Positions 9,001 through 15,000 of a DNA stretch of 28,751 nucleotides are shown here, piece by piece (position 1 is the first letter of the stretch; every line of letters starts with the position of its first letter). The position numbers were made by a program. The stretch spans positions 124,001 to 152,751 of the forward strand of contig JAFGPW010000004.1 in NCBI GenBank assembly GCA_016935985.1, given 5' to 3'. Origin of the DNA: Candidatus Woesearchaeota archaeon. GTDB taxonomy: Archaea > Nanobdellota > Nanobdellia > Woesearchaeales > JAFGPW01.

Positions 9001-12000
9001 TCCCCGGACCGCGGCTCGGCCCTGAGGGCAAGCTTTTTATACTCTCTGCGGCTCCCCGACACCATGCTCGTGGGGGTGGTCGGCAAGGCCAATGTCGGGA
9101 AGAGCACTTTCTTCAAGGCAGCGACGCTCATGGACGTCGAGATAGCGAACTACCCCTTCGCGACGATCAAGCCCAACCACGGCGTCGGCTTCATCCGCGT
9201 GCCGTGCGTGGACGCTGAGCTCGGCGTGCAGTGCGACCCGCGCACCGGGTTCTGCCGAAACCACCAGCGCTTCGTCCCGATCGACATGATCGACGTCGCG
9301 GGGCTCGTCCCCGGCGCGCACGAGGGGAAGGGGATGGGCCTCGAGTTCCTCAACGACCTCAACCAGGCGGATTGCCTCATCCATGTGATCGACGTCTCGG
9401 GAGGGACGAGCGACAAGGGAGAGCCGGTGCCGCCGGGGACGAGGGACCCGGCCGAGGACGTGCGCTTCCTCGAGGACGAGCTCGACTACTGGTACCTCGG
9501 CATCCTCAAGAAGCCCTGGGAGCGCTTCAGCAAGATGGTGACGCAGACGCATGAGGATGTCGCGAAGGCGCTCCACAGGCAGTTCTCCGGCCTCGGCGCG
9601 ACCGAGGAGATGGTGGTATCCCTCCTCAAGGCGACGGGGCTCGCCGAGACGCGGCTCTCCGACTGGAGCGATAGCCGTCTCTTCGCGTTCGCGAAGGCGC
9701 TGCGCATGAAGACGAAGCCGATGATCGTCGCCGCGAACAAGATCGACGTCCCGGGCGCCGCCGGCAATCTCGCGCGGCTGCAGGAGACGTTCCCTGACAC
9801 CGTCTTCGTCGGCTGCAGCTCGGAATCCGAGCTCGCGCTGAAGGAGGCGGACAAGCACGGCCTGGTGAGCTACCTTCCCGGCGACGGCGCGTTCGAGGTG
9901 AAGGGGCAGCCGAACGAGAAGCAGGAGAAGGCGCTCGCCTTCATCAGGGGAGAGGTCCTCGGGAAGCAGGGCAGCACCGGCGTGCAGGAGACGCTCAACC
10001 GGGCGGTGCTCGACGTGCTCGGCTACATCGCGGTCTGGCCGGGCGGGGTCTCGAAGCTCGCCGACAAGGACGGCAACATCCTCCCCGACGTCTTCATGCT
10101 GAAGGGCGGCGCGACCGCGCTCGACTTCGCCTACCGGGTGCACACCGACATAGGCAAGGGGTTCATCAGGGGGATCGACGTCAGGAGCAAGCGGACGGTG
10201 GGAAAGGAGCATGTGCTCAAGCACCGCGACATCATCGAGATCGTATCCTCGAAGTGAAGCGGGCAGGACCGGGACAGGAGGAAGAGAAGGGCATGGACGC
10301 GATCGGGTGCATCAAGGGGCGGCGATGCGTGCGGCAGTACACCGGCAAGCCCATCCCGGGGAGCTCGTCGTCGTCACGGACCGCATCATGCTCAAGCGGC
10401 TCGCCGCACTCGTCACCTACAGGAAGTTCATGAAGGACGCGGCAGCCGTAGTGGTCGTCGTTGGCGACGCGGACAACAAGCACGCGGTCGAGGACTGCGT
10501 CGCCGCGACGGAGAACATCCTGCCCGCCTCGTTCGCGCACGGCGTCGGGTCGTGCTGGGTCGCCGGCTACAATCAGGACTACAACGCGGCGTGCGCGCGG
10601 CTCCTCGGCATCCCTGCGGAGAAGGAGATATTCTCGTTCATATCGTTCGGCTACTACGGCACGCTTCCCCGAGCGCCGGCGAAGCGGCCGGTCGAGGACA
10701 TCATCCGCTGGGAGCGGTATTGAGCCGCCGTCCGGCCTACTGTCCCTGATCGTCCTCGTCGGGCGCGACGGATGATGGCCCCTGCTTCTTGATCAGGCCG
10801 TATTTCCCCAGCGTCTCCTTATAGAACGCGTAGTCCGCCGAGGATCTGAAGCGCGCGATCTCGTCCGGCGGGAGCCGGGCGATGAGCCTGTTCTGGACCT
10901 TGAGGAGCTGCACGACGTCGTCGGGGAGGGACGGCCCAGGCGCGCCCGCGACGCCTGCCATGGGATCGTCGACGGTCTCGTAGTCAGGGGCCGGCCGCCT
11001 CCCGCCGATGCCGAAGGCCTTGAAGATCTTCCCGAGCACGGACTCCTTGCGCTCCTCGATCTCGCGCTCGATCTCGTCGAGCTCCTCGTACTCGTGCTCG
11101 AGCCGTCCGACCGTGCCTTCCGACGCCTGGGCGAGCTCATCGGCCGATATCTCGACGTCCTTCCTCGCGATCGCCTTCCTGCCTACCATACGCTGCCAGA
11201 AGGTGGGCTCCTTCTCCTCGATGAGGATCTCCTCCTCGTTGAGGTTCTGGGGGACGACCCCCGACTCCATGTTGCGCTTCGAGTTGTGGTAGTCGGCGAC
11301 GAAGTCCGAGATCCTCTTGCGGCCGCGCGTCTCGAGATAGTTGTTGAGTTCCTTGTTGAACTGCTTTGCCATGGTGACCACCCGGTGGACAGCGAGCGCC
11401 CTTCCTCGCGCATCACGTCTTCCTCCCCGCCTTGAAGGACGCGGGGATGTCGATCAGGTACTTCCCTTCCGAGAGCTTGTAGATGAGGGGCTCTTTCTTG
11501 AAGAGGTGGACGAGGTCGAGCTCGTACTTGCCGGGCTTGAGGATCCGGATCGACTCCAGGTCGAGGACCACCGGCCGCTCCTTGTCGAGCTCGAAGCCGA
11601 TGAGGTCGAAGACGTCCTGCTCTATCTGCTTCTTCTCCGCCCTCGTGAGCTTGATGTTCATCTCGCGGGCGGACTCCACGTCCTCCTTCTTGACGAAGAA
11701 GAACAGCTTCGAGCCGCACCTGCAGCCCGAGAGTATCTCGTTCGCCCCGTCGTCATAGAAGGTGCCGCATCTGACGCATTGGTGTGGCATTGTTACCCTG
11801 CCTGTCCGGCGGCCTTCTTGGCCGCCCTCTTCCCGTTCCTGCGCGTCGGCCTCTTCGCCGGCGCGCCCTGCTCCTCGGTGAGGAGCTGTATCTTGTTAGG
11901 GGCCTGCTTGATCTCCTTGATGATCGTCGCGGGACCGATGATCGTGAAGCCCTGCCGGTCGCCGAGCAGAGCGCTGATGAGGCCCTTCTTGATCTTCGTG

Positions 12001-15000
12001 AAGAGGGCATCCTCCTTGTTCTCAGGATAGATGACCGAGAGCTCGATGCCGCGGAAGCCGTTCGAGATCTCCTCCATCGTGCGCTTGATGAGCTCGGTCT
12101 CCTCCTGCTTCTTGAGCCTGCCCTCGAGGAGAACGATCTTCTCCTCCTTCACGATGGAAAGGAGCCTCTTGATACGCTTCGACGAGTTCAGGTGCTCGAT
12201 TTCCGAGTACGGCAAAAACTGCAGGGTGAGCATCTATGCCACCTACCTCCTTTTTTTCTCAACCGGCGACGGTGAAGAGCCCCTCGTAGAACTGGTCCAT
12301 GTTCTGGCCGTTCTTGGCCGAGATGCCGATCACGTCATACTGAGGGAACGCCTCCTGCACGCGCTTGATGTCCGCCTTCTTCAGGTCCATCTTGTTCGCG
12401 ACGATGAGGACCGGGATGTCGCGTGCCTGCAGGTTGCCGACGATCGTGATGTTCACCTGGCTGTACGGGTCCTTCGTCGCGTCGAGAACGATGATGACCG
12501 TGTCCATCTCATCCAGCCACTTGATCGCGTCGATCACCCCTTTCGTCGCCTCCTTCGCGCGGACCTTCGCGTCCTTCTCCTTCATGCCGTGCTTGAGGAA
12601 ATCCTCGTAGTCGATCTTGGTCGCGATTCCCGGCGTGTCGACCAGGTTGAACGTGAGCTCTTTCCCCTTGGACTTGATGTTGATCTGCTCCTTTATCTGG
12701 ATCTCGCGGGTCTCATGCGCGATGTTCGAGACTGTCCCCATCTCCTCGCCGAGCCAGTCCTGGCAGATCCTATTGGCGAGCGTGGTCTTCCCGCCGTTCG
12801 GCGGGCCGTAGAGCCCGAGCCGCACGTGCTTCTTCTTCTTGAAGAGGTTGCCGAAGACCTTCTGGATGAATTTCCGGAACAGCTGCATCATGTGCATTCA
12901 CGTCGTATAGGAGTCCTGCTCTTTCTGACGATATATAAAAAGGTTTCGCTTACCTTTTTCCAGGTGGTGACACCCTCTCTCCGGCGGTCGGCGCGTCAGG
13001 ACGCGCGCTTGACCTCCAGGCTCGCTTCGACGAGCCGCCTCACGAGAGCGATGTCCCGCTCGTTCACGTCTATCCTGAGCTCGAGCCGCGCCGCCGCCTT
13101 CGCGAGCCTGATGATGCCGATCACGAGCCGGGGGCCGATCTCCACCAGGAACCTATCCTCGCCCTTCTTGATCCGCTCGATGAACGAGACGATCTCCTTC
13201 TCGAACCGCTTGGGGAACTTGACGTTGATGCTCTCGGCGAAGCCGACATAGTCCTTGATGAACGTGACGTCAGCCGCGCGGATCTTCGAGGCGTGGGTGC
13301 TCTCCGAGACGATCTTCTTCGCGATGCTCCGGAACTCGGCGACCGATGGCTTCCTGATGAGGAAGACCAGGTGGAACCGGGTGAGGAGCGCGGGGTCGAA
13401 GGGCAGCTGCTTCTTGAGGATGTCGATGCTCTTCCCCACGAACCGATCGCCTTTCGGGTTCGCGGTCGCAAGCACCCGCACCTTCGCCTCGATCTCGACG
13501 TTCTTGTCCGCCTTCGAATAGGTGATGAACCCCTTCTCCATGGCGTTGTAGAGCGCCCCGCGGTCCCCGCTCTTGAGGAGGTTGAGCTCATCGATGCAGC
13601 AGATGCCTCCGTCAGCCAGGGGAAGGAGCCCCTTCTGCACCTCACCGCCCCTGACGGTCGCGGAGAGGCCTGCCCCGCTCGTCCCTGACCCGAGACCGAA
13701 GGAGGTTATCGGGTGCAGATGGGATACCGAACGCAGGATCTCGGTCTTGCCGGTTCCCGGGTCGCCGAGCAGCAGGATATGGACCGGCTCGGCGGCGAAG
13801 AGTTGGAGGATCGATGCTTCCTTCGCCTCCTCGAGACCCAGGATGTCGGGCGCGACATGGGCCTTGAGCCGGGCCATCGCGTCCTTCGAGAACTCCCGGA
13901 AGACCCGTTTCCTCATCCTGCCGAGGATCTCGTCGTTGTGGCCCCGGGCGAACATGGCGAGCGCATGGTCATCCACCCCGACATCGATCTGGGGGTAGAC
14001 GAGGTCCTCGCCGACGGTCTTCGAGATGCCGAACGAGTGGTAGGAGACCCCGAGCTCGCCCCGCTTGATGTGCCGCTTGACCTTCCTGAAGTCCTTTCCC
14101 TCCAGGAAAGGGGAAAGCTTCGCTAGGTTGTTCCGGTCGTACTGCGTGAGGGGCAGGAGCGCCTTATACCAGCCTGCCACCAGAGCCGCCCCTTTTCTCT
14201 CCCATGACTCGATAATAGTGACATCCAGTTATAAATGTTTTGGTAGGGAGGGAGAGAGCCGAAAGGTTTATCAAGCATCCGACCCCTAAGAGCAATGATG
14301 AACGAGACGATCAAGGCGGACCTGATCAGGATCTGGGCGAAGGTCCTCGAGATAATCAACACGCCTGACCCGAACGATATCTTCGAGCTTCGCGACATCT
14401 CGAATTTCACTATCCACAACGCGAGCATCTACCAGGACAAGGACTCGACGTCAGCCGCGATCCTCGTCTACGCGCTCTCGAAGCTCGCGGACAGGAAGAT
14501 CTCGTTCGGCAAGGAGTTCACCCGGCCGATAACCCGTTTCACCGACCTCCTGAAGAAGGATGACCTCATCGGGTACCGCAAGAGGGTCATCGCCCTCTTC
14601 AAGCACGTGGAGTCGATCGACGCCAGGCTCAGGTACTACATCGACGAGGTCGTCAGGCTCGCCCAGATCAAGAAGGGGAGCAAGCTCTACGACCACGGCA
14701 TCAGCCTCGCCCAGTCCTCCGAGGTTCTCGGCATCAGCCAGTGGGACCTCATGGACTATATCGGCGCGACGACCGTGGGCGAGCCCGACTCGCGCGAGAA
14801 TGTGGGCGCGCGCCTCAGGTTCACTCGGGATCTCTTCGGCATCAGCGGCAGGGGTGCGCGCCGATGAGGGCGGTCGTCTTCGACACCGGCCCGATAATCA
14901 GCCTCGCTCTCAACAACCTGCTCGACGTGCTTCCCTCTCTCAGGAAGGCGTTCGGCGGCCCGTTCCTCATCCCGCCGAGCGTGCGGCGCGAGGTGATCGA

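Follow-up and report, generated by a model that had tools for sequence, protein, structure and literature searches.

A conserved miniature MCM paralog with its own N-terminal domain in genome-reduced archaea

The window, a 28,751-nt stretch of contig JAFGPW010000004.1 from a Candidatus Woesearchaeota archaeon, carries a gene for a short MCM-type protein, here termed mini-MCM. The gene is present in single copy in a housekeeping neighbourhood, with oapA, oapB and oapC downstream on the same strand. The features of the locus are as follows:

12996..14180, minus strand: mini-MCM (miniature MCM paralog), 394 aa, an ORF with a GTG start encoding its own N-domain, an MCM AAA+ core and a lid
13887..14171, minus strand: N-terminal domain of mini-MCM, approximately residues 4-98, supported by structure models, conservation and profile search
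13017..13889, minus strand: AAA+ core and lid of mini-MCM, residues 98-388, with K145, S168, D197/E198, K216, K223, N241, R268 and R351
12931..12950, minus strand: BRE/TATA-like sequence element within the 98 bp that separate mini-MCM from oapA, with similar elements in 21 of 26 such gaps
12259..12897, minus strand: oapA/arvA (neighbour), small GTPase with an N-terminal amphipathic helix
11793..12233, minus strand: oapB/arvB (neighbour; PF09846, E 3.5e-18)
11413..11790, minus strand: oapC/arvC (neighbour), zinc-ribbon protein (PF09845, E 3.5e-24)
14295..14867, plus strand: c5, 190 aa, divergent conserved gene with a weak UPF0175-type C-terminal HTH, bounding the other side of the slot
14864..15553, plus strand: c6, conserved gene with a putatively PIN-like N-terminus (PADLOC PDC-S70, E 7e-7, residues 1-51)
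17028..19855, plus strand: HerA and Mre11-like genes, part of the same ancestral gene block

Pfam assigned residues 98-292 to MCM (E 2.6e-38) and residues 307-388 to MCM_lid, with PF00493 and PF17855 both above cut-off, which places the protein in the MCM family of AAA+ clade 7. The NCBIfam MCM model matched with E 7.6e-44 over positions 284-592 of 682 only, as a preliminary description of this DNA had stated. That description had also proposed a 394-aa MCM AAA+ gene with intact motifs besides a normal MCM, and both were seen, the canonical MCM (671 aa) being encoded on another contig of the same genome (C5:89122-91173). No zinc finger, OB fold, A-subdomain or exterior hairpin was present in mini-MCM, and the chain stopped right after the lid, with no C-terminal winged helix. 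PADLOC returned only weak AAA matches.

The term 'headless', applied earlier, is wrong. Only about 97 residues precede the core, and a conserved domain of about 95 residues occupies the place of the zinc/OB tier. Models of this domain (pLDDT 93-94) predict a short amphipathic helix, two basic helices, a beta-hairpin and a long helix. Residues P10, K39, P63, N82 and F97 were conserved, cysteine was absent from the first 100 residues in 44 of 64 mini-MCM copies, and the domain profile matched only proteins of 515 aa or fewer. Fold searches of the PDB and of viral models with Foldseek gave nothing at E ≤ 0.001 (best VIA Z 4.5), which is no proof of a new fold. Alignment with the N-terminal half of canonical MCM using hhalign gave a probability of 0.5%, and neither hhalign nor HMM comparison supported the hairpin as a remnant of the MCM OB hairpin. 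In the ESM Atlas, features of the domain leaned weakly towards MCM_OB fragments (0.80-0.85), a lead only.

Analysis of the core showed that the ATPase elements were complete in all 38 aligned motif-intact copies: Walker A K145, Walker B D197/E198, sensor 1 N241, arginine finger R268 and sensor 2 R351. The helix-2 insert comprised 11 residues in 38 of 38 copies and 17 in 81 of 81 canonical MCMs, confirming the six-residue shortening noted previously. The exterior hairpin was reduced to 5 residues, from 17 in canonical MCM, in 35 of the 38, and both sensor-3 residues were changed (H418 to Y/L, Q423 to K). Among 133 non-redundant members, 82 jointly kept the cis residues (K145, D197, E198, N241) and the trans residues (R268, R351), as a ring ATPase needs. 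Several interface positions were fixed differently in canonical MCM and mini-MCM (K366/S, D407/N, K408/L, H418/Y and Q423/K, respectively), which fits separate rings for the two proteins.

Residue roles in the pore were mapped from SsoMCM as described in PMC6629641. The ps1-beta pore lysine K223 corresponds to SsoMCM K430, mutation of which is reported there to abolish unwinding. K223 was kept in 82 of 82 members with the six residues intact, a group in whose definition it played no part. All 38 intact copies had Ser/Thr at S168, the helix-2-insert equivalent of SsoMCM T369, and Tyr/Phe at Y221, the aromatic adjoining the pore lysine. The net charge was +12 in 64 intact mini-MCMs and -3 in 81 canonical MCMs.

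By both fold and sequence, mini-MCM is an MCM, and not a MoxR or chelatase protein. VIA Z was 28-31 to MCMs, compared with 20.0 for RavA, 18.5 for BchI and 16.0 for ComM; for the MoxR/RavA/chelatase group, E was 2e-9 against 2.6e-38 for MCM, and Z 18-20. An ATPase that remodels proteins, in the manner of MoxR, RavA and the chelatases, could nonetheless have been derived from MCM. RavA and BchI rank directly behind MCM in fold similarity, all dedicated MCM DNA-binding modules are gone, and the invariably aromatic Y221 would suit such a role. However, mini-MCM retains the phosphate-binding lysine of the pore as well as the Ser/Thr, it is a strongly basic protein, and no VWA-type partner recurred near mini-MCM when neighbour clusters, rather than a Pfam scan, were inspected at 108 loci. 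We consider a remodelling function distinctly unlikely.

Published work on truncated MCMs bears on what such a core could do. The AAA+ core of SsoMCM alone is reported to melt blunt and tailed duplexes (PMC1807962), while the PfMCM AAA+ domain alone is described as forming octamers with negligible unwinding (PMC4359371). Mutation of the conserved base arginine of the SsoMCM exterior hairpin is reported to remove ATPase activity (PMC2933578), and the loss of this arginine counts against mini-MCM as a strong helicase; one might guess that K216 makes up for it. Relative to archaeal replicative MCM (SsoMCM, PfMCM; NCBIfam NF040949), the core and lid are alike at about 33-35% identity and share the six ATPase residues, the ps1-beta lysine and the helix-2-insert Ser/Thr. 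Mini-MCM differs in lacking the A-subdomain, zinc finger, OB fold, exterior hairpin and winged helix, in its insert six residues shorter, in the change of sensor 3 from His/Gln to Tyr/Lys, in its own N-domain and in being dispensable.

The bacterial branch-migration motor ComM/YifB offers a parallel in architecture. It is described as an MCM-like ring core with a replaced N-tier, a helix-2 insert of half the usual size that lacks the Y386 aromatic, and a basic sensor 3, all as in mini-MCM (bioRxiv 2024.02.15.580443). In contrast to ComM/YifB, mini-MCM has no Lon-like domain or zinc finger and no DprA linkage, its Z was 16, and its match to TIGR00368 reached E 4.9e-7 with 28.7 bits against a cut-off of 362.4. 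ComM/YifB is at most a functional analogue. A role in transformation was rejected: DprA occurred in 7 of 151 order genomes and in 0 of the 38 with an intact copy, and ComM in 0 of 151. Nor was dependence on other candidate partners seen. HerA was found in 28 of 38 genomes with an intact copy and in 78 of 102 without the family, and c5 in 23 of 38 and 74 of 102, respectively. Overall c5 was present in 106 of 151 genomes; five of five tested homologs matched PF03683, all below cut-off.

These data suggest that mini-MCM may be an accessory ring DNA translocase outside normal replication, a reading to which we give an even chance. The protein would likely assemble into a ring that pumps DNA through its pore. 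Rather than acting as the replicative helicase, it would probably move on duplex or branched DNA during recombination, repair or maintenance of the chromosome; by analogy with ComM, duplex may be preferred over single strands. The N-domain could serve as a collar or docking site, and mini-MCM would operate independently of OapABC and of the canonical MCM ring. Against this reading stand the lost exterior hairpin, the PfMCM result, the motor-less copies described below, the lack of a co-occurring pathway partner, the roughly two thirds of order genomes that have no mini-MCM, and a Walker B context, DELNL, that resembles chelatase/MoxR ATPases.

The preliminary description had instead proposed that mini-MCM acts with OapABC, seen there as associated with the origin. 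These proteins are the ArvABC vesicle GTPase module, which is reported to drive the formation of vesicles in Haloferax (PMC10927574). Linkage to an origin was rejected, with cdc6 about 35 kb away, and in only 1 of 108 non-redundant loci, and contig GC skew uninformative. Proximity to oap genes, given earlier as 4 of 8 loci, did not hold at that level: of the 91 loci with sufficient flanking sequence, 28 had oapA no more than 1 kb downstream, and it was still the commonest direct neighbour. A count of OapB and MCM lying near each other in 37 order genomes of 42 overall was not reproduced. Mini-MCM is not a stable member of the ArvABC operon wherever ArvA occurs. oapA was present in 133 of 151 order genomes and the mini-MCM family in 47, so that most genomes with oapA were without the family, and 30 of 63 family-lacking genomes had c5 and oapA head-to-head with the slot cleanly empty. 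Neither oapA nor c5 adjoined mini-MCM in 46 of 78 loci.

The promoter-like element points the same way. A TATA-like box preceded oapA in the 21 of 26 gaps listed above against a shuffle mean of 12.2, for a pattern picked after inspection of the window's own gap, and by its sequence the BRE/TATA-like element is likely a separate oapABC promoter. A bacterial promoter scan found nothing, as expected for archaea. Complex prediction of mini-MCM with OapA, OapB and OapC from paired 31-row alignments scored 0.00 twice, with the controls also unfolded, and counts neither for nor against binding. Together with the empty slots and the distribution of oapA, the separate box speaks against the partnership proposed earlier, and the link between mini-MCM and Oap is weak.

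A membrane-tethered nucleic-acid pump, working with the ArvABC budding module to load vesicles or to move DNA at sites of budding or division, would account for the frequency of oapA next door and for an arrangement that looks ancestral. ArvA is described as binding membranes through an amphipathic helix, and the vesicles of Haloferax as carrying RNA (PMC10927574). An amphipathic-helix filter on the N-terminus was passed by 43% of 89 mini-MCM members (44% of 36 hand-picked motif-dead copies), compared with 10% of 552 background proteins. The same filter, however, passed 85% of 33 OapA and 16% of 81 canonical MCMs, and the mini-MCM helix may just pack on its domain. With the separate TATA-like box, the empty slots, the loci adjoining neither gene, and no oapA near any dead copy with scanned flanks, such a pump appears quite improbable.

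To these intact copies must be added a set that has lost the motor. In 49 of 133 non-redundant members the motor was lost and the frame still open, indicating that pumping is not the sole selected function. Of the 47 copies in the order sample, eight were dead with a full-length open frame, and a second order had seven full-length and one cut among 10. At 50% identity they formed 44 of 67 full-length representatives, a share inflated by fast evolution. Their hosts were not one clade (AU P 0.005, 5 of 29 rows), and one close dead pair gave a dN/dS of 0.20. N82 was kept in 49 of 49, and retention was 0.68-1.05 for the N-domain and lid against 0.35-0.54 for motor loops. The pore lysine was kept in 14 of 49 and the helix-2 insert decayed along with the ATPase motifs, so pore and motor appear coupled. 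With R268 kept in 13 and K145 in 18 of 49, neither face was favoured, giving no sign that dead copies trans-activate a partner ATPase. ATPase-dead open copies arose repeatedly, pointing to a second, non-catalytic role.

Inactive MCM homologs include M. kandleri MCM2 and the eukaryotic MCM-BP and MCMDC2. The Methanopyrus kandleri inactive homolog (PDB 3F8T, Z 28.9) resembles the motif-dead copies and is described as a second chromosomal MCM homolog without an exterior hairpin or Walker A (PMC2933578). It is longer (459 modelled residues) and aligns only from residue 85, whereas most mini-MCMs keep the motor. This precedent, the open dead frames in separate hosts, and an N-domain and lid that outlast the motor loops would agree with mini-MCM being a regulator or scaffold that mainly binds, for example to canonical MCM, with ATP turnover optional. 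Against this, 82 members retain all six catalytic residues, and every one of them also has the pore lysine; no face is favoured in the dead copies, and the interface residues are unlike those of canonical MCM. We regard a scaffold as the main role as unlikely. Under the accessory-translocase reading, dead copies would retain the docking or scaffold role alone.

A stand-alone winged helix was rejected as a general partner, as it is missing from this assembly and adjoins mini-MCM in 9 of 108 loci. It occurred in 26 of 151 genomes, 14 of them having the mini-MCM family; the gene found more steadily beside it resembles PolB. A third MCM kind can be envisaged, in which an N-domain-anchored membrane ring would pump nucleic acid at ArvABC budding sites of nano-sized archaea, would have turned several times into an ATP-independent scaffold, and in one lineage may borrow a head-to-head, free-standing MCM winged helix. 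We hold this scheme to be highly improbable.

Mini-MCM was widespread among tiny DPANN archaea but far from universal. Motif-intact copies were found in 39 of 151 order genomes (E ≤ 1e-90), the 0.6-Mb G017 among them, which matches the 11 of 41 reported earlier, G017 included. This count contains the unpublished G120; without three unpublished genomes it is 38 of 148. Dead copies occurred in 8 of 151, giving 47 of 151 for the family, so that about two thirds of order genomes were without it; in the second order it was present in 10 of 121. Intact mini-MCM is under purifying selection, with dN/dS of 0.05-0.22 in 13 unsaturated pairs (22 pairs examined; 10 within one genus). Tree distances followed those of the canonical protein (24 genomes, Mantel rho 0.64 and 0.58), in FastTree comparisons that scored G117, a holder of a dead copy, as family-lacking. 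The family is old, mostly vertical, tracks the host tree and has been repeatedly lost.

Extra archaeal MCM copies are reported to come usually from mobile elements or recent duplication (PMC3914693), and mini-MCM might on that basis be a domesticated viral or plasmid MCM, slowly decaying and without host function. Its presence is patchy; an unrooted tree placed it outside the order's canonical MCMs on a long stem beside long mobile-element branches, and the first ESM Atlas match was a 407-aa, mostly viral MCM-like cluster (score 0.97). Mobile-element MCMs (Bacillus cereus prophage BcMCM, pTN3, TPV1, haloviruses) are likewise extra MCM cores, and the usual N-terminus of BcMCM is described as replaced (PMC2715239). 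They are, however, 554-919 aa long in nine aligned, are not chromosomal orthologs, and none carries the mini-MCM N-domain; in all nine the helix-2 insert is longer and the exterior hairpin survives at least in part. Searches of phages, plasmids and IMG/VR yielded no close kin, the best matches being 24-42% across a portion of the protein. The housekeeping context, single copy, host-congruent tree and dN/dS well below 1 further oppose a relic. A functionless mobile relic is largely refuted and very improbable; an ancient mobile origin may still apply.

Taken together, the 38-of-38 motif conservation, the retained pore residues and a literature search that found no report of such a class support the earlier proposal of a new MCM paralog class, namely a second motor of MCM type that is conserved. 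MCM paralogs that are chromosomal, pass vertically and serve outside replication have been described chiefly in eukaryotes (MCM8/9). The mini-MCM family spans two orders of genome-reduced archaea and has exchanged the whole N-tier for a small domain. Its members are regularly labelled MCM2 in error, and marker sets and inventories of the replisome can be skewed as a result. It offers a test of what an MCM motor requires once OB tier, exterior hairpin and sensor 3 are gone; its natural active and ATPase-dead versions offer a test of the change from motor to pseudoenzyme.

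The miniature MCM is read from a 394-aa frame whose Pfam domains are the MCM P-loop (residues 98-292) and the MCM lid (307-388). The full MCM model of NCBIfam was covered only at model positions 284-592 of 682, and on contig C5 the source genome (92% complete) encodes a single canonical MCM with 671 aa, in agreement with a preliminary description of an AAA+ core besides a normal MCM. Elsewhere in the source genome lies a MoxR/chelatase-like ATPase frame of 358 codons (G000 C6:159263-160336). The genes of the window considered here are:

About 6300-6900, minus strand: c13, a conserved unknown gene of ~190 aa, on the far side of the YchF-like GTPase at 16 loci
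10737-11381, minus strand: 214-aa gene directly after oapC, no family match, 34% homolog in one other locus
12259-12897, minus strand: oapA (OapA/ArvA)
12996-14180, minus strand: miniature MCM reading frame
14295-15553, plus strand: c5-c6 pair, of UPF0175-HTH and PIN-like appearance, resembling a toxin-antitoxin-type architecture
15593-16411, plus strand: 272-aa gene, no Pfam match, homologs in 3 other loci, with a motif suggestive of a PD-(D/E)XK nuclease-like fold
17028-19855, plus strand: adjacent HerA and Mre11-like genes, then a HAD hydrolase, not rad50 or nurA

An AlphaFold2 model of the protein (89 sequences in the alignment) had a pLDDT of 93.7, and its predicted core matched MCM structures at Z 28-31, with RavA, BchI and ComM well below. 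Residue roles were transferred through the alignment from SsoMCM, a canonical archaeal MCM (PMC6629641). All six ATPase residues, the pore lysine K223 (SsoMCM K430) and S/T168 (T369) were kept in 38/38 intact copies, bearing out the claim of intact motor motifs. The helix-2 insert was indeed shorter by 6 residues, as had been described, and the deletion includes the position equivalent to Y386, a residue reported as dispensable for strand displacement by SsoMCM (PMC6629641). In sensor 3, H418 is replaced by Y or L and Q423 by K, and the exterior hairpin has lost 12 residues relative to canonical MCMs. The joint conservation and joint decay of cis, trans and pore residues, with the basic charge, point to a ring ATPase whose pore would grip nucleic-acid phosphate. 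The alternative of a protein remodeller is judged improbable.

The protein had been called headless. Instead, its N-terminal 98 residues are predicted to form a separate domain (pLDDT 93.5) made up of one short amphipathic helix, a pair of basic helices, a hairpin and one long helix; position 39, in the basic helices, is K/R in 89/89 sequences. No likeness to the canonical MCM N-half was detectable, nor, in structure searches, to solved or viral folds. The MCM head is therefore replaced, not absent. A profile of this domain, run against 1.84 billion proteins, retrieved 106 representatives, all of at most 515 aa.

Literature searches, with subscription papers mostly outside their scope, found no description of such a paralog, as claimed before; supplements aside, PMC3914693, PMC12680538, PMC9258230 and a 2026 Nanobdellota preprint appear to touch on extra MCMs in general terms at most. 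Known precedents are MCM cores of mobile elements in which the N-terminus is replaced (PMC2715239), and an inactive hairpin-less homolog from M. kandleri (PMC2933578). The ESM Atlas holds an unnamed 390-aa Woesearchaeota cluster, probably this family, and its rank 1 hit was a 53-member, 407-aa cluster of mostly viral MCM-like proteins (feature score 0.97). These homologs and both clusters count against the novelty of the architecture taken alone.

Of 8000 candidates in a word-based search, 723 proteins reached E<=1e-20, canonical MCMs possibly among them; the best 120 listed, the query's own record aside, measured 344-423 aa at 46-57% identity. Named homologs carried Woesearchaeota, Nanoarchaeota or DPANN labels. 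The Methanosarcinales label of many third-party records is distrusted because they contain the same gene block as the window. Close copies occurred in 39/151 genomes of the order (38/148 without the unpublished G120, G131 and G111, on which no other claim depends). With a broader profile, 8 more copies, diverged ones, came from the matches listed; 49 weaker matches lay beyond that list. A second order of the class had the family in 10/121 genomes; in a sample of 251 from across the phylum, the 44 matches were confined to the window's order.

Miniature MCMs formed one long-stemmed clade (support 100/100), to which neither the order's 14 canonical MCMs nor the 9 viral/plasmid MCMs belonged, in an unrooted tree that does not fix the origin of the family. 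On a tree of 80 canonical MCMs the family's presence was scattered, with 22 changes against a mean of 23.2 after shuffling. Copy distances followed host distances (rho 0.64, or 0.58 once end branches are removed; p<0.001; 24 genomes). Together these patterns fit a gene that the ancestor of the order already had and that was lost many times since. Among 13 unsaturated intact pairs (set of 22, 8 saturated), dN/dS was 0.05-0.22.

Some copies keep an open frame and have lost key ATPase residues. Of 67 full-length N-domain representatives, 23 had all seven key residues and 44 five or fewer, a dead share inflated by fast evolution. By genome, the order had 39 close copies (each of the 38 scored was intact) and 8 dead, and the second order 2 intact and 8 dead, one of these cut by a contig end. 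Among 133 non-redundant members, six catalytic residues were complete in 82, five remained in 2 and four or fewer in 49. The pore lysine was kept in 14/49 dead copies and the helix-2 insert decayed alongside the motor, while N82 was kept in 49/49 and the N-domain and lid also persisted. That the protein is a scaffold or MCM regulator seems rather unlikely. Hosts of dead copies do not form one clade (AU p 0.005), and one family has both states at the same site beside c5 (G117 versus G228 and G289). Long open frames at 20-35% identity, and a dN/dS of 0.20 in the only close dead pair, thin as one pair is, suggest that dead copies are not plain pseudogenes. That the family is a relic is very improbable.

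The gene shares its strand with oapA, oapB and oapC, which are downstream of it; upstream, on the other strand, are the conserved genes c5 and c6, then an unknown gene, HerA and the Mre11-like gene. Among 108 non-redundant loci (relatives not independent; 80 without motif scoring), oapA started <1 kb downstream in 28/91 with enough flank, c5 was divergent within 1 kb in 17/89, and HerA lay within 6 kb upstream in 15/63. The described adjacency to oap genes holds in the window and is weak as a general link; neither oapA nor c5 was adjacent in 46/78. Across the 151 order genomes, oapA occurred in 133, HerA in 115 and c5 in 106, the last single-copy and often head-to-head with oapA despite its toxin-antitoxin-like look. 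Two genomes, G017 and G144, lack this HerA, yet keep an intact miniature MCM. An empty slot, with c5 and oapA head-to-head within 500 bp, was found in 30/63 family-less genomes holding both genes; 22 intact-copy genomes had 0 empty and 8 filled slots. A TATA-like element preceded oapA in 21/26 gaps, some reaching into the start of oapA (shuffle mean 12.2, 0/1000 as high). Since the block occurs without the gene, with empty slots and this element, the miniature MCM is an optional tenant of an old gene block.

The name 'origin-associated' is historical: in Haloferax, vesicle formation is driven by OapA/ArvA, which DPANN archaea have too (PMC10927574). With cdc6 ~35 kb away in the source genome, the proposal of action with an origin-associated OapABC is not supported. 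A membrane pump working with ArvABC is improbable. Across most of the 133/151 order genomes with OapA/ArvA, its sequence identity is 63-84%, unusually high for such archaea, which suggests a core role that may go beyond optional vesicle release.

Two further genes recur around the loci. c13, without a Pfam match, has up to three tandem copies (L056:1796-3432). A free-standing winged-helix gene of ~90 aa, a homolog of the winged helix that ends canonical MCMs at the C-terminus (L033:6546-6815, L039:8387-8662 and 7 more loci; also L302, L303), had a best E of 7.6e-6 against Pfam MCM_WH_arc, a model matching 78/81 canonical MCMs. It stands head-to-head with the miniature MCM in 9/108 loci, occurs in 26/151 genomes, often next to a PolB-like gene, and is absent from the source assembly.

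Precedent for a lone MCM core as motor is mixed: that of SsoMCM unwound many substrates and was mostly monomer or dimer (PMC1807962), that of PfMCM showed hardly any unwinding (PMC4359371), and loss of the hairpin arginine killed the SsoMCM ATPase (PMC2933578). The pathway is the weakest step of an accessory translocase reading, because presence counts across the order genomes showed no co-occurrence of HerA, DprA, ComM or c5 with the family. The shortened helix-2 insert, the replacement of the N-tier and the basic character of sensor 3 have their parallel in ComM, a motor that travels along duplex DNA (bioRxiv 2024.02.15.580443). We give an even chance that the miniature MCM serves its hosts as an accessory ring translocase, which would act on DNA.
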